A stretch of 64,000 nucleotides of DNA from Escherichia phage vB_EcoM_HZ_ZJUN4, in sequence record PP216085; one strand, given 5' to 3'. Under the pieces are notes generated by a model, which worked only from the letters and a program-made list of their open reading frames with translations, had not been told where the DNA came from and made no database searches. Numbering within the stretch: the stretch's first letter is position 1; every line of letters begins with the position of its first letter. Shown here piece after piece: positions 11,065-52,422 of the stretch. The position numbers and the translations under genes were made by a program.

Positions 11065-12630
11065 TTAGATACCTTTAACATATACACGGCGGAAGTAAGC
11101 GTTTTTACCAAGGCTATTCAGAATAGAAGGCATACCGCTCTGGATGCGAGAAGCCGGAGCCTGAGCAGCGGATTCTGCAAATGGGTTGATACCGATACCG
11201 TAACGAGTTTTGAATCCCATTACTGGTTGGAAGTTCTTCGGATCGGAACCACGCAGCGGAGTCAGAGCTACATATGGAGCATAGTAAATACCAGCATCCA
11301 TTTCGTTCGGACCTTTATAACCTACAGTGAAATAATCCTGTTTAGCATACTGGTCGATATATACACGGTATTTACCACCCAGAACACCCGCAAATACTGA
11401 CTTGGTAGTATCAGTGTTAAAGCCGGTAGCCAGACCCTGTGCAGCATAAGAAATGCCAGTATCAACTGAAGCCAGAACGTTAACTACGTTACGGGAAGCG
11501 ATAATGAAGTTACCTTCACCACGACCGGTCTGACGAGCAATTTCAACTGCTTCTTTGTCAATCTGGAACAACAGAGCTTTAAAGGATTCACCCGCCCAGC
11601 GAGCACCACGAATATCAATCGGATCCTGGAAGTCAAATACACCAGCTTTAGAACCCGGAGTCAGGGTCATACCAGATTTACCAACCTGAGCCGAGTAGTT
11701 AATCCAATCGACAACTTCACGGTTGATTTCCAGCATGATTTCTGTAGCCAGAATACCAGACAGTTCAGCATCAGCATCCATACCGTGAACAGCGCGGAGG
11801 TCTTGTGCTAATTCGATAGAGTAAGCAGCTTTCAGCTGGCGAGATTTAGCTTCGATAACTTGTTTATCGATACGGAAGCCCATTTCATTCCATGGGTTAT
11901 CGGTAGAACCGTTGAAACCTTCCTGAAGTTCAGCGATAGAAGTAGCCATACCTTCAGCGATTTCTACCAGTACACCAGCTTCCATTTGTTTCTTAATTTC
12001 AGCATCTAATTTAGCTGCGTCAGTTGCACTAGTATCAATTTGCTTAACTTCTGTAGCTTGCAGATACACAGTACCAGTGTCCTGGAAGAAGTGGGTGTAA
12101 ATAGTTCCAACTTCAAGAGTATCACTTGCTTTCAAAGCAGCGAATTTCTTAGCAGCACCCTGACCAGAGAACATTGCATCTGGACCATACATTGGGTGGA
12201 ATGCTTCTTTAGCACCGGCAGCGATTGGGTCTTTACCATATACTGCGCGCAGTGCGAATACCTGACCGGTCGGGCTATTCATCGGCTGAACACCGCAAAT
12301 ATCGAAAGCAATCAGGTTAGGAATAGCACGACGTACCATACCCATAACAGCTGGGCCAATCTGAGTTACTGCACCAGAAGTCTGACCGGCAGCGATGTTA
12401 GTAGCATTGTAACCGTGGTCACCACCGATTTCAGCTTCTGTTAAGAAAGAACCGAACGCCTGAGCGATTTTTTCGTCTTTGTACTCTGGAGCTGTCTGGA
12501 AATCTTTTTCCTGGTTTTCAAAGATTTTAGCGATAATCGCTTGTTTGCTATTAGCAATTTCCGGTAAACCTTCACCTTCCAGTAATGGCTTCCATTTGTT
12601 CAAAAGTTCAGCTTTAGTTTTGATAGTCAT
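11065..12630 (-). CDS. 23: major capsid protein gp23
   Basis: 521 aa; N-terminus MTIKTKAELLNKWKPLLEGEGLPEIANSKQAIIAKIFENQ recognised as T4 gp23. Confidence 0.97.
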   Translation of the reverse strand: MTIKTKAELLNKWKPLLEGEGLPEIANSKQAIIAKIFENQEKDFQTAPEYKDEKIAQAFGSFLTEAEIGGDHGYNATNIAAGQTSGAVTQIGPAVMGMVRRAIPNLIAFDICGVQPMNSPTGQVFALRAVYGKDPIAAGAKEAFHPMYGPDAMFSGQGAAKKFAALKASDTLEVGTIYTHFFQDTGTVYLQATEVKQIDTSATDAAKLDAEIKKQMEAGVLVEIAEGMATSIAELQEGFNGSTDNPWNEMGFRIDKQVIEAKSRQLKAAYSIELAQDLRAVHGMDADAELSGILATEIMLEINREVVDWINYSAQVGKSGMTLTPGSKAGVFDFQDPIDIRGARWAGESFKALLFQIDKEAVEIARQTGRGEGNFIIASRNVVNVLASVDTGISYAAQGLATGFNTDTTKSVFAGVLGGKYRVYIDQYAKQDYFTVGYKGPNEMDAGIYYAPYVALTPLRGSDPKNFQPVMGFKTRYGIGINPFAESAAQAPASRIQSGMPSILNSLGKNAYFRRVYVKGI

Positions 12631-12648: not shown

Positions 12649-13458
12649 TTAGAAACGAGATGCGACTTTCGCATATACACTTACAATATCTTCTGCACCA
12701 GGTGCAGCTTTATCTTCTACAGCTTCAGTGACGAAATTCAGTCCGGCTGCTTCAGTATCAGGAGTATTTATACCCTCAGTAATAGTGCTTTCATCTTTAT
12801 TAGACTTCTTCACCATTTCTACGATGGCACTCAATTTATTTGAGAATTCATCTGAATAATCCATACCTTCGACCAGAGCAGAGACTTTTTCTTTTTGAGA
12901 CTCAGTCAGATCTTTAGTACTTTCGCTCAATGCCACTTCACGCTGCACATAATTGATATATGCGTCGCGCATATTGAGTTCTTCGAACAGACGAGCTGAT
13001 TCTTCTTTATGTTCTTGCAGCTCTTCTTCCATTTCAGCCACAACATCAACTGATTCTTCTGGAACAACAACGTTGTGTTCAACAAAGAGCTCTTTTAATC
13101 CACCAAGCATGGATTCAAACAGTTCGGCTTTGATGCCTTTATCAACTGCTAATTTATTTTCAGCGAGCCATTCTTTCGCAAGATGGTCGATGAATTTAGA
13201 AGCTTGCTCAGCGATTTTCTTCTCAGCTTTTTCTTCGGCTTCTTCTTTATTTTTTTCTACTTCTTCTTCTGCTTTTTCAGCAATTTTAGCGATATGAGAT
13301 TCAGCTAATTTAACGGCGTGCTGCTTGACGGTAGCTTCGAATACAGTGCCGAAAGTTTCTTTTGCTTCCGGAGAAATATTAACTGATTCGAAAATACTAT
13401 CAAGAGCAACGGAAGCATCAATTTTTTGCGCTTCAGCAATCAGTTGTTCTTTAAGCAT
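12649..13458 (-). CDS. 22: prohead core scaffold protein gp22
   Basis: 269 aa; acidic, coiled-coil-rich; synteny 21-22-23. Confidence 0.9.
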   Translation of the reverse strand: MLKEQLIAEAQKIDASVALDSIFESVNISPEAKETFGTVFEATVKQHAVKLAESHIAKIAEKAEEEVEKNKEEAEEKAEKKIAEQASKFIDHLAKEWLAENKLAVDKGIKAELFESMLGGLKELFVEHNVVVPEESVDVVAEMEEELQEHKEESARLFEELNMRDAYINYVQREVALSESTKDLTESQKEKVSALVEGMDYSDEFSNKLSAIVEMVKKSNKDESTITEGINTPDTEAAGLNFVTEAVEDKAAPGAEDIVSVYAKVASRF

Positions 13459-13485: not shown

Positions 13486-13493
13486 TATTTATA
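13486..13493 (-). promoter_or_regulatory. late promoter box for gene 22
   Basis: TATAAATA on minus strand 28 nt upstream of the gp22 ATG. Confidence 0.5.
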
Positions 13494-14127
13494 ACGCTTT
13501 TTTCATGGCCTCTGCGAGAGCCATATAGGCGTCATCGGCACTTGTATCGGCTTCCGCCGTCTGTGATTCGGTAATTTCCTTAGGAGTTACCCATGCATCT
13601 GGAGCACTTGGACCCCATACTGCATCAACACCTACAGTTAATTTGAATCCTTCGTTTACGATACGATAACCTTTATTTGTGTCAGTCAATGAACCTAATC
13701 CACGAGAAGAAACTCCTGGAATCCATCCGGCACGAATATTAGCTGCTAATTTATCTCCAGGACCGTGGTCACCTTCAATAACACGAGCTCGTCCGTATAC
13801 GTCATTTCCTTTCCACCACATATCTTCTATAATGATAGCGGCTTGCATCGGGTCAACATTAGCGCGTGGAGGATGATTTAATTCTCCGAGAGCTTGTTTA
13901 GTTAAAACTTGCTCATTAATATAGTCTTTTACCGCTTTTTCTAATATGCGTTTTGGATAAAGACGTTTATTTCTATTGACGACTTCTGCTTGCATGAATA
14001 TTCCTTCGATGTATAAACCCGGTTTTAAACCTAAGTCTTTTCCATCGTGGGATTCAAGCATTGGCACACCATCAATAATTTCGCCAGGTTGACCCCAAGT
14101 TTCAATTAGTAATTGGGGTTCATTCAT
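13489..14127 (-). CDS. 21: prohead protease gp21
   Basis: 212 aa as in T4; synteny. Confidence 0.9.
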   Translation of the reverse strand: MNEPQLLIETWGQPGEIIDGVPMLESHDGKDLGLKPGLYIEGIFMQAEVVNRNKRLYPKRILEKAVKDYINEQVLTKQALGELNHPPRANVDPMQAAIIIEDMWWKGNDVYGRARVIEGDHGPGDKLAANIRAGWIPGVSSRGLGSLTDTNKGYRIVNEGFKLTVGVDAVWGPSAPDAWVTPKEITESQTAEADTSADDAYMALAEAMKKAL

Positions 14128-43088: not shown

Positions 43089-43376
43089 ATGAAAACATTT
43101 AAAGAATTTACTTCTACAACTACCCCGGTTTCTACCATTACCGAAGCTACTCTTACTTCTGAAGTTATTAAAGCAAATAAAGGACGAGAAGGTAAACCAA
43201 TGATTAGTCTGGTTGATGGCGAAGAAATCAAAGGTACTGTTTACCTAGGCGATGGGTGGTCTGCTAAAAAGGACGGTGCTACAATCGTTATCTCTCCTGC
43301 TGAAGAAACTGCGTTGTTTAAAGCTAAACACATTTCTGCGGCACATCTCAAAATTATTGCTAAAAATCTTTTGTAA
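43089..43376 (+). CDS. ipI: internal protein I (IPI) precursor
   Basis: 95 aa; long CTS MKTFKEFTSTTTPVSTITE followed by ATLTSEVIKANKGREGKP, recognised. Confidence 0.85.
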   Translation: MKTFKEFTSTTTPVSTITEATLTSEVIKANKGREGKPMISLVDGEEIKGTVYLGDGWSAKKDGATIVISPAEETALFKAKHISAAHLKIIAKNLL

Positions 43377-44404: not shown

Positions 44405-44477
44405 TGGGAATTAGCCAAGTTGGTAAGGCACTGGATTTTGATTCCAGGATGCAAAGGTTCGAGTCCTTTATTCCCAG
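44405..44477 (+). tRNA. tRNA-Gln (anticodon UUG)
   Basis: Cloverleaf folded by hand: acceptor TGGGAAT/ATTCCCA, anticodon loop TTTTGAT, T-loop GGTTCGAGTCC. Confidence 0.8.
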
Positions 44478-44478
44478 C

Positions 44479-44565
44479 GCGAGAATGGTCAAATTGGTAA
44501 AGGCACAGCACTTAAAATGCTGCGGAATGATTTCCTTGTGGGTTCGAGTCCCACTTCTCGCACCA
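44479..44565 (+). tRNA. tRNA-Leu (anticodon UAA), type II, CCA encoded
   Basis: Acceptor GCGAGAA/TTCTCGC, anticodon loop CTTAAAA, long variable arm, GGTTCGAGTCC. Confidence 0.8.
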
Positions 44566-44570
44566 AATTT

Positions 44571-44644
<74 letters not shown>

Positions 44645-44654
44645 ATTTAATTTA

Positions 44655-44728
44655 CTCCGTGTAGCTCAGTTTGGTAGAGCGCCTGATTTGGGATCAGGAG
44701 GTCCAAGGTTCAAATCCTTGTATGGAGA
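44655..44728 (+). tRNA. tRNA-Pro (anticodon UGG), no encoded CCA
   Basis: Anticodon stem CCTGA/TCAGG, loop TTTGGGA; GGTTCAAATCC T-arm. Confidence 0.8.
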
Positions 44729-44730
44729 CT

Positions 44731-44820
44731 GGAGGCGTGGCAGAGTGGTTTAATGCACCGGTCTTGAAAACCGGCAGTCGCTCCGGCGACTCATAGGTTC
44801 AAATCCTATCGCCTCCGCCA
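44731..44820 (+). tRNA. tRNA-Ser (anticodon UGA), type II
   Basis: Acceptor GGAGGCG/CGCCTCC, anticodon stem CCGGT/ACCGG, loop CTTGAAA, long variable arm. Confidence 0.8.
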
Positions 44821-44825
44821 GTTTT

Positions 44826-44901
44826 GCTGATTTAGCTCAGTAGGTAGAGCAACTCACTTGTAATGAGAAGGTCGGCGGTTCGATTCCGTCAATCAGCACC
44901 A
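44826..44901 (+). tRNA. tRNA-Thr (anticodon UGU)
   Basis: Acceptor GCTGATT/AATCAGC, anticodon loop CTTGTAA, GGTTCGATTCC T-arm. Confidence 0.8.
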
Positions 44902-44902
44902 A

Positions 44903-44977
44903 GGCCCTGTAGCTGGAAGGTTCAAGCAAGCGACTCATAATCGCCAGATGGTGGTTCAATTCCACCCAGGGCCACCA
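44903..44977 (+). tRNA. tRNA with CAU anticodon (Ile by synteny with T4, reading AUA after modification; Met not excluded)
   Basis: Acceptor GGCCCTG/CAGGGCC, anticodon loop CTCATAA, GGTTCAATTCC T-arm. Confidence 0.7.
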
Positions 44978-44990
44978 AATTAAGAATTAA

Positions 44991-45077
44991 GGGGAGTTAT
45001 CCCGTAGAGGTAGCGGTGTGGACTGTAAATCCATTGTCATTGCGACTCGGGTGGTTCGACTCCATCACTCCCCACCA
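44991..45077 (+). tRNA. tRNA-Tyr-like (anticodon GUA), type II
   Basis: Acceptor GGGGAGT/ACTCCCC, anticodon stem GTGGA/TCCAT, loop CTGTAAA, long variable arm, T-arm GGTGG-TTCGACT-CCATC; D-arm pairing imperfect. Confidence 0.6.
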
Positions 45078-45081
45078 ATTT

Positions 45082-45156
45082 GGATGTGTAGCTCAATGGC
45101 AGAGCGATCGCCTGTTAAGCGATTGGTTATAGGTTCGAATCCTATCACGTCCGCCA
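45082..45156 (+). tRNA. tRNA-Asn (anticodon GUU)
   Basis: Acceptor GGATGTG/CACGTCC, D-stem GCTC/GAGC, anticodon stem ATCGC/GCGAT, loop CTGTTAA, GGTTCGAATCC T-arm. Confidence 0.7.
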
Positions 45157-45160
45157 AATC

Positions 45161-45236
45161 CGAGGCATAGCTCAGAAGGAAGAGCAAGGACCTTCTAAGT
45201 CCTAGGTCGTAGGTTCGATCCCTACTGCCTCGACCA
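45161..45236 (+). tRNA. tRNA-Arg (anticodon UCU)
   Basis: Acceptor CGAGGCA/TGCCTCG, D-stem GCTC/GAGC, anticodon stem AGGAC/GTCCT, loop CTTCTAA, GGTTCGATCCC T-arm. Confidence 0.8.
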
Positions 45237-45252: not shown

Positions 45253-45603
45253 ATGAAAGGTAATGTTTATTTAGTAGTTCATGATTTAACATTCTATTTT
45301 AATCACAATGACACTGTTATTTCTGAACGTGTAATTAATTTACTTTATCAGCATGCAGATTATGTTTATGTCGAAAACGAATACGGTCATTGGCAATTTC
45401 TCAAAAATCGTTCATTTGGTTTAGATGGTTACGAATACTTTGAACGTAAAGACCTTTTAGATAAAATTCCGTTATCTACACAATATCAAAATCATAAGTC
45501 TTTATATAAATGCCGTCCAATTCGAAATGCTGAATCTGCGTATGAAGTAATTGATTTATGGCGTAAACGTCGTGGACAGGTTGATGCTTTAAAAGAATAC
45601 TAA
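45253..45603 (+). CDS. hypothetical protein
   Basis: 116-aa ORF starting 17 nt after tRNA-Arg, with a GAGG RBS. Confidence 0.5.
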   Translation: MKGNVYLVVHDLTFYFNHNDTVISERVINLLYQHADYVYVENEYGHWQFLKNRSFGLDGYEYFERKDLLDKIPLSTQYQNHKSLYKCRPIRNAESAYEVIDLWRKRRGQVDALKEY

Positions 45604-45914: not shown

Positions 45915-45943
45915 AGCCCCGACCGAAAGGTTGGGGCTTTTTA
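45915..45943 (+). terminator. intrinsic terminator (repeat copy 1)
   Basis: 10-bp stem AGCCCCGACC/GGTTGGGGCT with GAAA loop, then TTTTT. Confidence 0.75.
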
Positions 45944-45944
45944 G

Positions 45945-45952
45945 TATAAATA
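45945..45952 (+). promoter_or_regulatory. late promoter box TATAAATA
   Basis: Exact TATAAATA 40 nt upstream of the 45992 ATG. Confidence 0.45.
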
Positions 45953-45991
45953 TAGTAGTGTATTAAATCACGAATTAAAACAGGAAATAAG

Positions 45992-46465
45992 ATGAAATCA
46001 TATGCTCAATTTTTAAATGAAGTGGTGTTAAATGAAGCATCCGCTTCAGATGTTCGCGCTGTAGCAACTGCTGCTATTAAAGCTGGTAAATATTCTTATA
46101 AAGATGCTTCTGACGAATCCCGGTACAAGTTCTACGACGATATGAGAGCTGAAGGCTTTGTGGGTAACTATGTTACCACCGCCTGGAAAAGTCTGGTTGC
46201 TACTGGTGCGGCTTTCGAAAAACCTTCCGGTAAACCTGCTCCTAAAGCAGATCCTAAAGCTGCACAAGAAAAAAATATTGTTAAAGGAATTATCGCTAAA
46301 TATGAAGCTATACTTAAAGAGCTTTTAGTAATTAAAACCGAAGGCCAAAAATTAGCCCGTGCCTATAGTTTCAAAGATAATCCACATGCTCATGACCTAG
46401 AGTATGTTGAAGACATCCAAAAAATTATTAAAGACCGCATTTGGTCTGCTAAACAAATCAAATAA
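45992..46465 (+). CDS. candidate internal (capsid-targeted) protein, unrecognised family
   Basis: 157 aa; N-terminus MKSYAQFLNE matches the 10-residue CTS of T4 internal proteins; flanked by identical terminators. Confidence 0.6.
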   Translation: MKSYAQFLNEVVLNEASASDVRAVATAAIKAGKYSYKDASDESRYKFYDDMRAEGFVGNYVTTAWKSLVATGAAFEKPSGKPAPKADPKAAQEKNIVKGIIAKYEAILKELLVIKTEGQKLARAYSFKDNPHAHDLEYVEDIQKIIKDRIWSAKQIK

Positions 46466-46472
46466 CATTCTT

Positions 46473-46501
46473 AGCCCCGACCGAAAGGTTGGGGCTTTTT
46501 A
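46473..46501 (+). terminator. intrinsic terminator (repeat copy 2)
   Basis: Same hairpin as 45915-45943, then TTTTT. Confidence 0.75.
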
Positions 46502-46590
46502 GTTTGAATCGCATAGAGAATGCTGTTACGGATAATAACAAAGTAATAAATAATTAATAACTGACCGATAAATTATTTCAAGGATTTTAA

Positions 46591-47154
46591 ATGAAAACCT
46601 ATGCCGAATTTTTAACCGAAGCAGCAAAATTACCATCTGAAGCAGAACTTACTAAAGTATTCTTCCAATTGGACCCAAAAGACCGTGGCGATTTTCTTAA
46701 GTGGAAAGCTAAAGCTATTGAAATGTATAACATTGATAATAGTTCTTTTACGATGAGTCAAGAAAATAAATTCAATAAAGCATTTTTCAAAATTTCTAAG
46801 AAACTGGCATCTGGCGCTCAGGTTCCTAAATCTGCCTTAGCTACTCCTGAACGTGCGCCTGTTAAAATTTCTAAGAATATGTTCGACACTAAAAAATACG
46901 TTAATGCTTTGAATAAAGCTCTTGATGCATTGGATGATGCAAAGAAGGCAGCCCGTGATCTTCAAGACGTGTACATCGATTTTGATCGTAAAACTAAAGG
47001 TTCTATTTCAAATAGCGAACGCAATAGTGTAAGCGTTTATTCTGATAGCCTTGACGTTCTTGGCGATGCGTATACTGAAATTAAAAATCGTATTAACACC
47101 GCATCTAAACTAAAAGCTGCCGCAGAAGCTATAATAGCTAAACTAGGTAAATAA
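46591..47154 (+). CDS. candidate internal (capsid-targeted) protein, unrecognised family
   Basis: 187 aa; N-terminus MKTYAEFLTE matches the T4 CTS; Lys/Ala-rich body. Confidence 0.6.
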   Translation: MKTYAEFLTEAAKLPSEAELTKVFFQLDPKDRGDFLKWKAKAIEMYNIDNSSFTMSQENKFNKAFFKISKKLASGAQVPKSALATPERAPVKISKNMFDTKKYVNALNKALDALDDAKKAARDLQDVYIDFDRKTKGSISNSERNSVSVYSDSLDVLGDAYTEIKNRINTASKLKAAAEAIIAKLGK

Positions 47155-47163
47155 TTTTAAACC

Positions 47164-47188
47164 CCCTATCTAAATGATAGGGCTTTTT
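47164..47188 (+). terminator. intrinsic terminator
   Basis: CCCTATC-TAAAT-GATAGGG then CTTTTT. Confidence 0.6.
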
Positions 47189-47947: not shown

Positions 47948-48541
47948 ATGAACACACTGAAGAAAATTGTTGATTTTATTCGCACTAAACTTGGTTCTGC
48001 AATGGCTAAAAATCTATCTGTTGAAGAACAGTATACTGCTGCAGCAGCAAAACTGCTTGATAAAATTAAAGACCTAAAAACTGCTTCTGTTAAATCTATT
48101 AATGAAGAAAAACGTATTCGTGAACTTATTGTTGAAAAGAATAAACAGGCTGAATCAAAAGAGCGTGAAATTCGCAAGCTTCTTTCCGAAGGTCAAGATG
48201 TAACAATGCATGCTAAACTTGGCTTGCTATATCGTCGAACAGCTGAACAGCTGACTACTAAAGCTGATGGGTATGCTGAAATGCGAATTGAAATCGCCAA
48301 GAAAGTAGTTGAGTTAGATGATGCTCGTCAAGAACTTGCAGTTAAATTGGAATATATCCGTGAAACTCGTGCGGCAAATGCCCTTGGAATTAGTACTGCT
48401 GATGATGTAGTTGAAATCGCAGCGCTAACTAAGGTTGATATTGAAGATACCCTTGCTCGAGTTGAAACCTTTAACGGTAATATTTCTGGGGTTGAAACCA
48501 CTTCTGCCGATGTTCAGGAATACATTAATTCTCTGAAATAA
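47948..48541 (+). CDS. coiled-coil protein, possibly PspA/IM30-like
   Basis: 197 aa, almost entirely heptad-like Lys/Glu/Ala/Leu helices; the PspA resemblance is by eye only. Confidence 0.45.
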
Positions 48542-48581: not shown

Positions 48582-49190
48582 ATGAGAATGCAAAATGATT
48601 TCAATTCAATGTTTGAAGAGTTCCAAAGACATGTTGATGTTCCAGACCAATTACTAAATGCTCTTAAACGTATGGCAGAAGGACGTAATTACTATTGGGG
48701 CTCTTCGTATGAAACTGATGAAAGCCTTTCTGGAAGACTTTATAGAGGTAAAAAGTCTTTAATACGTCCTGGAATACTTATTAACAGTATTGAATCAATT
48801 CATTCATTGACATGTGATTTTGATGTTGAATTTACTGATTTCATTTCCCCTGAATGGACGGTATGCTATTTAAACGATGATTATGACTATCTTGGCATTT
48901 ATAGTTTAAGTGACGCGGGGTTTAGACGTAATTTACAAAAGTCAAATTTATTTTATATTGATACTACGGTAAAATTTCAAGGCAAGAAATATTTCTTTAC
49001 TCTTATAGTTGACTCTGAAACAAAATATGAAAATAAACGTATTCTTAGTAAAAAGAATATCTTGACTATTATTGATGATCTTTTTGATAAATTCGTGGAA
49101 AATCCTAATTTTGAAAGCGATTTATTATTAGAAAAATTTGTTAAGGAATGTAGAGAATATGTCAAAGCCATCACTATACCTTCCAAGTAA
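48582..49190 (+). CDS. hypothetical protein
   Basis: 202-aa ORF. Confidence 0.5.
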   Translation: MRMQNDFNSMFEEFQRHVDVPDQLLNALKRMAEGRNYYWGSSYETDESLSGRLYRGKKSLIRPGILINSIESIHSLTCDFDVEFTDFISPEWTVCYLNDDYDYLGIYSLSDAGFRRNLQKSNLFYIDTTVKFQGKKYFFTLIVDSETKYENKRILSKKNILTIIDDLFDKFVENPNFESDLLLEKFVKECREYVKAITIPSK

Positions 49191-50934: not shown

Positions 50935-51252
50935 ATGAAAACGTTTAAAGAATTTATTGCAGAATCTGCCCAAGGACAACGTGTAGAAGGCGGTTATATC
51001 TGGATTGAACAAGTTGAGCCGCCAAGTCGCACTTCTACAGGTAAATGGAAAATCACTGTTGATGGTCCTGGTGGTAAACGTAGGACTCTTAAAGAAATTA
51101 ACGGGTACTATGAAGAAGCTCTTTCTGACGCGGGTACTTATATGATGCAAATCATGATTAAAAACCCAGAAAATCGTTTTGCGGCTAGAGTTTTCCGCCG
51201 TATTGGAAATAAGCTTTATGATGCATATTCTAAAAACTTCCCTAAAGAATAA
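50935..51252 (+). CDS. internal protein with CTS (IPII/IPIII-type)
   Basis: 105 aa; N-terminus MKTFKEFIAE; locus next to e as in T4. Confidence 0.7.
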   Translation: MKTFKEFIAESAQGQRVEGGYIWIEQVEPPSRTSTGKWKITVDGPGGKRRTLKEINGYYEEALSDAGTYMMQIMIKNPENRFAARVFRRIGNKLYDAYSKNFPKE

Positions 51253-51268
51253 AAATTAAAGGATACAC

Positions 51269-51742
51269 ATGAAAACATATCAAGAATTTATTACTGAAGC
51301 AGCTATTAATTCTCAAATTATTGCTGAATCTTTTACTGATCTTTTGAAATTTAAAAAAGGACAGAAAATCACTGCTGTATTGGATGATGGTACAGAAGTT
51401 GAGATGGATGTACAGGGATATAATTATGCAGTAGATGGAAAACTGTATAATAAATCTCATGCTAAATTTGATTCATTTGACGACTTTGTTAATACAGTTG
51501 AAGATGAAAAAACTCGTCGATCCATTGCAACTGGTGATGCTAAGGTTCTTATGGCACATGGTCATGAACGCATTCGCGCTAAACAGAATAAAATGGGTGA
51601 AGATAATTTTGCATTAGTTGGTTATCAATCTGGTAAGCAAACTTATGGCTATCAGCGTACTGCTACCATGTATAATAAAAATGGTAAAATCGCTTTCGTG
51701 AATAGTAAAGGTTCTATTCAGTACGTTAAATCGTTCAAATAA
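51269..51742 (+). CDS. internal protein with CTS (IPII/IPIII-type)
   Basis: 157 aa; N-terminus MKTYQEFITE; locus next to e as in T4. Confidence 0.7.
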   Translation: MKTYQEFITEAAINSQIIAESFTDLLKFKKGQKITAVLDDGTEVEMDVQGYNYAVDGKLYNKSHAKFDSFDDFVNTVEDEKTRRSIATGDAKVLMAHGHERIRAKQNKMGEDNFALVGYQSGKQTYGYQRTATMYNKNGKIAFVNSKGSIQYVKSFK

Positions 51743-51882: not shown

Positions 51883-52422
51883 ATGAGAACATTTTTAACT
51901 GGTCCTTATCTATCCCTGATGAATGCTTTTACACACCATTCTGATGCTAGAGTAGAAGAAATTTGTAAAAACGAATATATCCCGCCATTTGAAGACTTAC
52001 TTAAACAGTACTGCACACTTCGACTAGATGGTGGACGTCAATCCGGTAAATCAACTGCAATAACTAATTTTGCCGCTAATTGGTTATATGATGGTGGAAC
52101 AGTTATTGTTCTTTCTAATACTTCAGCTTACGCTAAAATTTCTGCGGGCCACATTAAAAAAGAATTTTCTCGTTATTCTAGCGATGATATTCGATTCCGC
52201 TTATTTACCGATTCTGTCCGTAGTTTTATCGGTAATAAAGGAAGCAAGTTCAGAGGTTTATCGCTTTCGCGGATTTTGTATATAATCGATGAGCCTGTTA
52301 AATCTCCTGATATGGATAAGATTTATAGTGTCCATATTGACACTGTACACTGCTGCTGTAATATTAAATGTTGTATTGGTGGTATTACTCGTCCACAGTT
52401 TTTCGTAATCGGAATGCAATGA
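51883..52422 (+). CDS. small P-loop NTPase with Cys-rich C-terminus
   Basis: 179 aa; Walker A GGRQSGKST, Walker B-like ILYIIDEP, tail HCCCNIKCC. Confidence 0.5.
   Translation: MRTFLTGPYLSLMNAFTHHSDARVEEICKNEYIPPFEDLLKQYCTLRLDGGRQSGKSTAITNFAANWLYDGGTVIVLSNTSAYAKISAGHIKKEFSRYSSDDIRFRLFTDSVRSFIGNKGSKFRGLSLSRILYIIDEPVKSPDMDKIYSVHIDTVHCCCNIKCCIGGITRPQFFVIGMQ

Follow-up and report, generated by a model that had tools for sequence, protein, structure and literature searches.

Candidate capsid-targeted internal proteins in a two-cassette insertion between rnaC and e.8 of the T4-like Escherichia phage vB_EcoM_HZ_ZJUN4

Two neighbouring open reading frames (ORFs) of Escherichia phage vB_EcoM_HZ_ZJUN4, ORF1 (45992-46465, 157 aa) and ORF2 (46591-47154, 187 aa), start with a capsid targeting sequence (CTS) of the kind carried by the internal proteins (Ips) of phage T4. 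They are located in a stretch of 64,000 nucleotides from this phage (record PP216085), which was analysed as a whole and is called the window in the following. The window belongs to a T4-like genome (Tequatrovirus), its + strand corresponds to the T4 minus strand, and the top DNA match of the region is Escherichia phage vB_Eco_F25 (98.4%). We propose, with a probability of about 0.65, that ORF1 and ORF2 are late-expressed, paralogous internal proteins that are packaged into the phage head, each encoded in a plug-in cassette of its own, and that they are injected and likely act against host defence. Both genes had been called with these boundaries and N-termini by a first-pass annotation made from the letters of the DNA, and they are confirmed here as + strand genes with an ATG start and a Shine-Dalgarno sequence 6-7 nt upstream of it.

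Capsid targeting sequences of ORF1 and ORF2

ORF1 begins with MKSYAQFLNE and ORF2 with MKTYAEFLTE (46591-46620). Translated from the T4 record, IPII and IPIII start with MKTYQEFIAE, and IPI starts with MKTFKEFTST. Compared with MKTYQEFIAE, five of the ten residues are identical in ORF1 and seven in ORF2. A six-frame translation of the window contains four matches to the pattern MK[ST][YF]xxF[ILV]xE, with 0.0011 expected from the amino-acid frequencies and none seen in 200 shuffles. All four matches are located at the ATG of + strand genes, namely ORF1, ORF2 and the genes starting at 50935 (MKTFKEFIAE) and 51269 (MKTYQEFITE), and a looser pattern recovered the same four sites and nothing more. 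Thus, the likeness to the T4 CTS, for which the first-pass annotation had drawn on the latter two genes, is well founded.

At the DNA level, the segments from the ribosome-binding site (RBS) to the CTS of the cassettes resemble each other. This would fit an explanation in which the CTS-like start was spread by cassette shuffling and the 5' DNA serves as a module for recombination or translation initiation. ORF1 and ORF2 would then be late proteins that are not stably packaged, or they would enter the core and be fully degraded like gp67 and gp68. We regard this as quite improbable. Homologues from other genera start with MKTYNEFLNE, MLNFKEFITE, MLQYNEFLKE, MKFKEFLAE or MITFNEFLNE, and here codons and residues differ but the aromatic-xx-F/I-hydrophobic-x-E pattern is kept. 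Therefore, the CTS is conserved as a peptide, beyond the DNA, which argues against a lack of packaging, as does the ratio of nonsynonymous to synonymous substitution rates (dN/dS) of 0.18 in the propeptide region. Moreover, a CTS of about 10 residues is sufficient on its own to load unrelated foreign proteins, e.g., GFP, into T4 cores and heads (PMC9958956).

Prohead protease sites and head-assembly machinery

The T4-type assembly machinery is encoded on the - strand of the window. It comprises the scaffolding core protein gp22 (12649-13458; T4_CASP, E 1e-89), which forms the assembly expected to take up CTS cargo, the prohead core serine protease gp21 (13489-14127; Peptidase_S77, E 1.5e-111), which is expected to remove the CTS, and the major capsid protein gp23 (11065-12630). 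In T4, gp21 trims N-terminal peptides of IPI-III and 65 residues of gp23, and the internal proteins lie embedded in the packaged DNA and are injected along with it (PMC9958956; PMC3012670). Candidate gp21 sites of the type hydrophobic-X-Glu before a small residue (a slash marks the cut) are FLNE/V and VLNE/A in ORF1 and FLTE/A in ORF2, and the end of the ORF2 CTS, FLTE10/A, is the same tetrapeptide as in the maturation site of gp23 in the window (GSFLTE65/AEIGG). Since a near-consensus CTS, a cleavage motif, late promoters and a T4-type assembly machinery are all present, packaging and trimming are expected, and it is likely, judging from these features, that both proteins are packaged and processed by gp21.

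Late in infection, the N-terminal CTS of about 10 residues would bring each protein into the prohead core formed by the scaffold gp22. The protease would then cut after hydrophobic-X-Glu, at FLNE10 and probably also at VLNE15 in ORF1, and at FLTE10 in ORF2. The mature, basic and Lys-rich protein would stay within the packaged DNA and exit the head with it at the next infection.

The candidate propeptide of ORF1 consists of the CTS and a following VVLNE (45992-46036), with possible cuts after E10 and E15. A second [LIV]-x-E a few residues downstream of the first is found in ORF1 and in most homologues outside Tequatrovirus (SVLNE, SEMINE, SVELVTE, SLISE), and the tandem site is shared with the JS98, Kosakonia, Enterobacter and metagenomic homologues; shorter orthologues of ORF1 have one [LIV]-x-E site only. 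The propeptide of ORF1 and of most non-Tequatrovirus homologues may thus be bipartite and have two protease sites. The orthologue of ORF1 in Yersinia phage fD1 would start with AVLNEASSTEIQAVAK if cut after E10 and with ASSTEIQAVAK if cut after E15. Predicted masses of the mature proteins are about 16 kDa (ORF1) and 19.6 kDa (ORF2). In the mature parts there are few or no additional gp21-type sites, which speaks against full degradation in the core; ORF1 has one internal [LIVM]xE, at E110, which is a point in favour of it.

Organisation and occupancy of the rnaC-e.8 site

In T4, the interval between rnaC and e.8 is a 285-bp spacer without genes, in which GGTTGGGGCTTTTT is directly followed by GGTATCTAAGCC across the empty junction. 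Comparison of the window with T4 showed that about 1.25 kb are inserted exactly 3' of the rnaC terminator, and that both flanks are of T4 type. The insertion consists of two cassettes, delimited by three terminator hairpins, each with a late promoter or a late-promoter-like octamer, an RBS, a CTS start, a body and a terminator hairpin, all on the + strand. Its left boundary is the rnaC 3' terminator hairpin (AGCCCCGACCGAAAGGTTGGGGCT followed by T5; 45915-45943), from which T4 goes straight to GGTATCTA. Cassette 1 (558 bp) comprises TATAAATA (45945-45952), which is a consensus T4 late promoter 40 nt ahead of the ATG, the RBS AGGAAA (45982-45987, with the Shine-Dalgarno AGGA at 45982-45985), ORF1 and, at a repeat spacing of 558 bp, the rnaC hairpin in a second, exact copy (46473-46496, listed feature to 46501). 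Cassette 2 (688 bp) comprises AATAAATA (46545-46552, 39 nt upstream of the ATG), the RBS AAGGA (46580-46584), ORF2 and a third hairpin (47164-47182, listed feature to 47190), which has the same ending GGGCTTTTT as the earlier copies and is followed by the T4-type flank starting with GGTATCTA. As AATAAATA matches the late promoter at 7 of 8 positions, ORF2 may be expressed from it or else by read-through of the terminator. GATAAATA or CATAAATA is found at the position of the ORF2 promoter in CT01, Kosakonia 305, Clarke_MM3 and the metagenomic contig L008, and the junction of terminator and TATAAATA also precedes the homologues in WG01, JS98 and KpnM6E1. In the GenBank record of RB32, the ORF1 orthologue is described as "flanked by 34 bp imperfect direct repeat", yet it is called hypothetical.

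Four states of occupancy were observed. The site is empty in T4, T2 and RB10, it holds ORF1 alone in RB32, phage 107 and fD1 and ORF2 alone in CT01, and both cassettes are present in the window; 164 records have ORF2, and in 118 records the two-cassette region is covered to 80% or more. In Dhakavirus, a 184-aa predicted membrane protein (MKLLKYLSW...) without a CTS occurs at this site (WG01_138, L009:3010-3564; JS98 gp136, L011:1877-2431), and in WG01 and JS98 its cassette sits between the same terminator-plus-TATAAATA repeats. Cassettes other than those of internal proteins are thus also accepted at this site. This would be in line with a start that travels with the DNA and with proteins that stay outside the head, an explanation weighed above. 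The four states, together with the non-CTS cassette of Dhakavirus, identify rnaC-e.8 as a modular insertion site. Judged by its gene content, it is a third locus of internal proteins, apart from the classical 57B-trna.4 and e-denV loci. The first-pass annotation, which placed the genes in a hypervariable locus, is imprecise on this point, as the site is neither of the classical Ip loci.

In ORF2, the linker segment (46789-46877) lies between exact 14-nt direct repeats AAAATTTCTAAGAA (46789-46802 and 46864-46877, 75 nt apart). ORF2 of Shigella phage CT01 (L010:2501-2989) shows an exact 25-codon deletion between these repeats, and ORF1 is absent from this phage. Since CT01 lacks both the linker and ORF1, the linker can be dispensed with and neither cassette depends on the other. 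Escherichia phage T4_ev240 (LR597657.1) carries a homologue of ORF1 with 85% identity, although the site of reference T4 is empty, which suggests that this lineage gained the cassette by recombination.

Some further differences to T4 were seen upstream of the insertion. The tRNA cluster of the window (44405-45236) has ten tRNA genes, including Met(CAT), Tyr and Asn, and that of T4 has eight. The homing-endonuclease gene segB lies within the T4 tRNA cluster, and none is present within the cluster of the window. Directly 3' of tRNA-Arg there is an ORF of 116 aa (45253-45603) with no function assigned.

Protein architecture and selection

In ORF1, an N-domain (residues 16-75) is followed by a P/K/A linker (76-95) and a C-terminal helical hairpin (96-157). 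ORF2 has the corresponding layout, with the CTS, an N-domain (11-73), a linker (74-99) and a C-terminal hairpin (100-187). In the AlphaFold models of both proteins, the CTS forms a short helix and the N-domain three helices, the Pro/Lys/Ala linker is disordered, and the C-terminal part folds into a long helical hairpin. The profile of PHROG 2280 ("unknown function") covers both proteins from end to end (E 1.7e-54 for ORF1 and 3.4e-53 for ORF2), and the same family was matched by eight of eight ORF2-type sequences, which came from five named genera and two unclassified sources. In BLASTP, the alignment of ORF1 with ORF2 was confined to the CTS, and shallow hhalign profiles gave a probability of only 34%. 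With alignments enriched by sequences from other genera, hhalign reached 95.9% (E 5e-9) over the C-terminal domain. From this result and the common PHROG membership, ORF1 and ORF2 are diverged paralogues.

Behind the CTS, neither sequence nor fold revealed any homology to Ip1, Ip2 or Ip3. BLASTP of ORF1 and ORF2 against T4 IPII aligned the CTS and left the bodies unaligned, and scans with Pfam, NCBIfam and PADLOC gave nothing above noise, in agreement with the earlier impression of bodies unlike those of IPI-III. No PDB sequence was matched in profile searches, and Foldseek against PDB and BFVD returned the own family only; the ORF2 model was too poor for a fold search. A remote homology of ORF2 to IPII had been considered by eye (DPKDR and AAIEAAKAI-like motifs), and it was not supported by BLASTP.

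The mature proteins contain 13.6% (ORF1) and 14.7% (ORF2) Lys and no Cys, their isoelectric points are 9.2 and 9.5, and the composition is close to that of T4 IPII and IPIII. ORF1 is under purifying selection (pairwise dN/dS 0.05-0.20), and the selection differs between its parts. The N-domain is the most divergent part, with two allelic types within Tequatrovirus and a dN of 0.188, about 9 times that of the C-domain (0.022), which is nearly frozen (dN/dS 0.03). Among the 164 records of ORF2, 163 show 95-99% identity.

Potentially, proteins of this kind might be packaged and processed but play a structural or physico-chemical role, as Lys-rich counter-ions or DNA organisers that help the genome to condense or to be ejected. 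This is the main rival to an anti-defence function, and we consider it unlikely. It is kept alive by the high degree of conservation seen in ORF2 and in the C-domain of ORF1 and by the DNA-friendly linker, which is rich in P, A and K and extends to longer KP/AP repeats in the JS98, Kosakonia and Enterobacter homologues. The basic, Lys-rich composition and the maintenance of the family at one position across genera are also compatible with it, and lysines of T4 internal proteins touch DNA phosphates in the head (PMC3012670). However, T4 and T2 manage without either gene, the ORF of CT01 is intact without the ORF2 linker, and the ORF1 N-domain, with its distinct allelic types, diverges far faster than the C-domain. 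Moreover, the three T4 Ips tested are specific restriction inhibitors despite a similar composition (PMC12373910).

Distribution of the family

ORF1-type genes were found in 511 phage records, which comprise Tequatrovirus and genes of about 70% identity in Dhakavirus and related coliphages, and ORF2-type genes in the 164 records mentioned. A type represented by gp154 of Yersinia phage fHe-Yen9-01 is present in 131 records, including JS98-like coliphages and Enterobacter, Kosakonia and Klebsiella phages, and a hybrid type, which combines the ORF1 N-domain with a "TPDLY" C-domain, in 49 records from Klebsiella, Yersinia, Serratia, Erwinia and other phages. All records of these four types are annotated as "hypothetical protein". 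A word-indexed protein search retrieved near-identical relatives only, and an exhaustive phmmer search with ORF2 added one distant relative.

Homologues occur in Dhakavirus, Tegunavirus, Jiaodavirus, Karamvirus and Kanagawavirus and in a Klebsiella phage without a genus in its record. They retain the CTS-like start, the [LIV]xE site and the late-promoter-like octamer at the 5' side, and they are likewise located behind the tRNA cluster. Relatives thus occupy this position in six or more Tevenvirinae genera besides Tequatrovirus. All genera examined have the gene between the tRNA cluster and e.8/e.6, with a hairpin and TATAAATA (or G/C/AATAAATA) upstream. The Pro/Ala/Lys-rich linker grows to 40-60 residues of KP/AP repeats in the JS98, Kosakonia and Enterobacter homologues.

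The metagenomic T4-like contig L008 (Logan SRR28624380) encodes an ORF2-like CTS protein (1419-2033), followed by a second cassette (2092-2526) composed of a hairpin, CATAAATA, a protein starting with MITFKQFLNE and having an ART-PolyVal/DUF3990 ADP-ribosyltransferase domain, and a hairpin. By its sequence, this cassette looks like CTS-tagged enzyme cargo, analogous to T4 Alt.

Evidence from virion proteomes and points of doubt

Sequence comparison identifies g140 of Yersinia phage fD1 (67942-68415, 157 aa) as an orthologue of ORF1. In liquid chromatography-tandem mass spectrometry of fD1 virions purified by ultracentrifugation, g140 was particle-associated at a strict threshold (PMC8309999). 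Thus, virion association of ORF1-type proteins is supported indirectly, and detection above the strict threshold speaks against late proteins that never reach the virion. In the same study, the orthologues g137 and g136 of the e.6 (47948-48541) and e.5 (48582-49190) homologues of the window were flagged as particle-associated as well; neither of them has a CTS. In the parts seen of the virion mass spectrometry supplements on Klebsiella Jiaodavirus phages, which lie outside the homologue matches, none of the six tryptic peptides of the gp123-type homologue was listed, and the fPS-65/fPS-90 paper contains no proteomics. Together with the CTS, the cleavage motif, gp21 and gp22 in the window, the late promoter of ORF1 and the Lys-rich composition, the detection of g140 bears out the first-pass proposal that ORF1 and ORF2 are candidate internal proteins.

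Several observations weigh against the proposed role. With 113-137 of 277 gene products flagged, DenV, lysozyme and NudE included, the specificity of the fD1 study is low (PMC8309999). Because so many products were flagged, non-structural enzymes among them, the weight of the g140 detection is limited, which also leaves some room for proteins that are not packaged. The proteomic support concerns the ORF1 orthologue and not ORF2, and cleavage and injection are predictions for both proteins. Moreover, ORF2 has no perfect late promoter, and the ORF1 CTS agrees with the T4 consensus at 5 of 10 positions only, the others being conservative changes. The AlphaFold models are moderate to poor (predicted local distance difference test scores of 73 for ORF1 and 60 for ORF2). 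No resemblance of either protein to known anti-defence proteins was found in sequence or structure, and the fold matches are generic helical hairpins. Finally, ORF2 and the C-domain of ORF1 are strongly conserved, unlike proteins in an arms race, which usually diversify rapidly.

Proposed function and significance

Recently, Ip1, Ip2 and Ip3 were shown to inhibit a different GmrSD-type type IV restriction enzyme each, and they share the leader only, with no other homology (Silas et al., 2025, PMC12373910). As these three proteins are not homologous to each other, the dissimilarity of ORF1 and ORF2 to them is no argument against an inhibition of GmrSD. In addition, IPIII is required for T4 infection of ECOR17 (PMC9391042). 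By analogy, injection and an anti-defence role may be inferred for ORF1 and ORF2, and their likeliest function would be to neutralise a first-response host defence before phage genes are expressed. The divergent N-terminal helical domain would be the likely specificity element; the sequences give no pointer to a target.

It is tempting to speculate further, though this is a possibility rather than an expectation, that rnaC-e.8 serves throughout Tevenvirinae as a third loading dock for swappable injected cargo, and that PHROG 2280 is a modular injected inhibitor of a defence new to Ips. The format of terminator, late promoter and CTS would let phages exchange arbitrary payloads, including an ADP-ribosyltransferase in one relative, and PHROG 2280 would combine a variable N-domain, a flexible linker and a conserved helical hairpin. 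Its target might be another subtype of type IV restriction enzyme or a different first-response system. If true, this would account for differences in host range between T4 and T2 and the many phages that have the family.

Diverse CTS cargo in T-even phages is already known. Repoila and colleagues reportedly named T-even internal proteins such as Ip4, Ip7, Ip9 and Ip10 in 1994, and such cargo is said to have been familiar since then. What is new is the recognition of PHROG 2280 as a CTS-bearing family with a paralogous pair in this phage, and a third locus with its cassette format, the suggested bipartite propeptide and the breadth across Tevenvirinae. The first-pass annotation had regarded the two proteins as the strongest candidates in the window for something undescribed. 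This stands insofar as all records read "hypothetical" and carry no Ip name, but the family is large and conserved and the kind of cargo is known. Neither ORF1 nor ORF2 shows homology to Ip1-3, Ip4 or Ip10. In the 90%-identity clusters of ORF1 and ORF2 no member bears an Ip name, unlike in those of Ip10 and Ip4, and in the annotation of WG01, Ip7 and Ip9 are labelled and the ORF1 homologue is not. A search of literature full text for the CTS strings and for RB32ORF133c/RB14ORF136 retrieved no paper on ORF1 or ORF2, and a search by Ip names gave no relevant paper. The absence of the family from T4 and T2 and the label "hypothetical" given by annotation pipelines explain why it has been overlooked.

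ORF1 and ORF2 would hardly surprise a T4 specialist, but they are directly testable and relevant after the findings of 2025. Since all three T4 Ips inhibit GmrSD-type enzymes (PMC12373910), each additional CTS-tagged protein is a readily testable counter-defence candidate. The family is common, with about 180 records of related types besides those of ORF1 and ORF2, and it is conserved in genera used for phage therapy. T4 and T2 are natural knock-outs to which a cassette can be added, and the bipartite propeptide and the cassette format offer a simple rule to mine T4-like genomes for injected cargo.

Comparison with known internal proteins

Three further genes for internal proteins are found on the + strand of the window. 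The translation of ipI (43089-43376), at a classical internal-protein locus, matches T4 IPI. The gene at 50935-51252 is of the Ip10 type, its cluster including Ip10 of phage Pol (CAA84455), and that at 51269-51742 is of the Ip4 type (DUF7412) and clusters with Ip4/IpIV. Together with ORF1 and ORF2, the phage therefore has five candidate CTS-type genes, two of which have never been named. The Ip10-type and Ip4-type genes occupy the positions of T4 ipIII and ipII, and the gene that follows (51883-52422, 179 aa) is not denV.

Like IPII and IPIII, ORF1 and ORF2 have a CTS of about 10 residues that ends in hydrophobic-X-Glu; they are small, basic, Lys-rich, Cys-free, non-essential and variably present, and are encoded on the same strand as neighbouring late genes. 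Processing by gp21 and co-injection with the DNA would be expected for them by the same comparison. In contrast to IPII and IPIII, they consist of two helical domains and a disordered P/K/A linker, with no detectable similarity of the bodies, and a tandem second [LIV]xE site is present in ORF1 and most non-Tequatrovirus homologues. Their locus is rnaC-e.8 instead of e-denV, and the family occurs in many genera of Tevenvirinae but is absent from T4 and T2. Ip2 and Ip3 inhibit GmrSD (PMC12373910), a function that could be extended to ORF1 and ORF2 by analogy only.

The GmrSD inhibitor IPI (IPI*) is likewise packaged into the capsid, trimmed by gp21 and injected, and a gene for a T4-matching IPI is also present in the window. 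IPI differs in its propeptide of 19 residues and its compact fold, in which helices flank two beta sheets (PMC3012670), whereas purely helical structures are predicted for ORF1 and ORF2, which are about double its size and similar to it in the first residues only. T4 Alt, an ADP-ribosyltransferase, is packaged with the core, trimmed by gp21 and injected. By Pfam, NCBIfam and fold search, no enzymatic domain was found in ORF1 or ORF2, in contrast to Alt; a counterpart among relatives is the CTS-tagged ART-PolyVal cassette of contig L008. Ip4 (DUF7412) and Ip10 differ in that they are encoded at another locus and carry an Ip name or the label "internal head protein" in at least some records. They too are CTS-bearing cargo of T-even phages besides T4, and among all these Ips it is only the CTS that is held in common.

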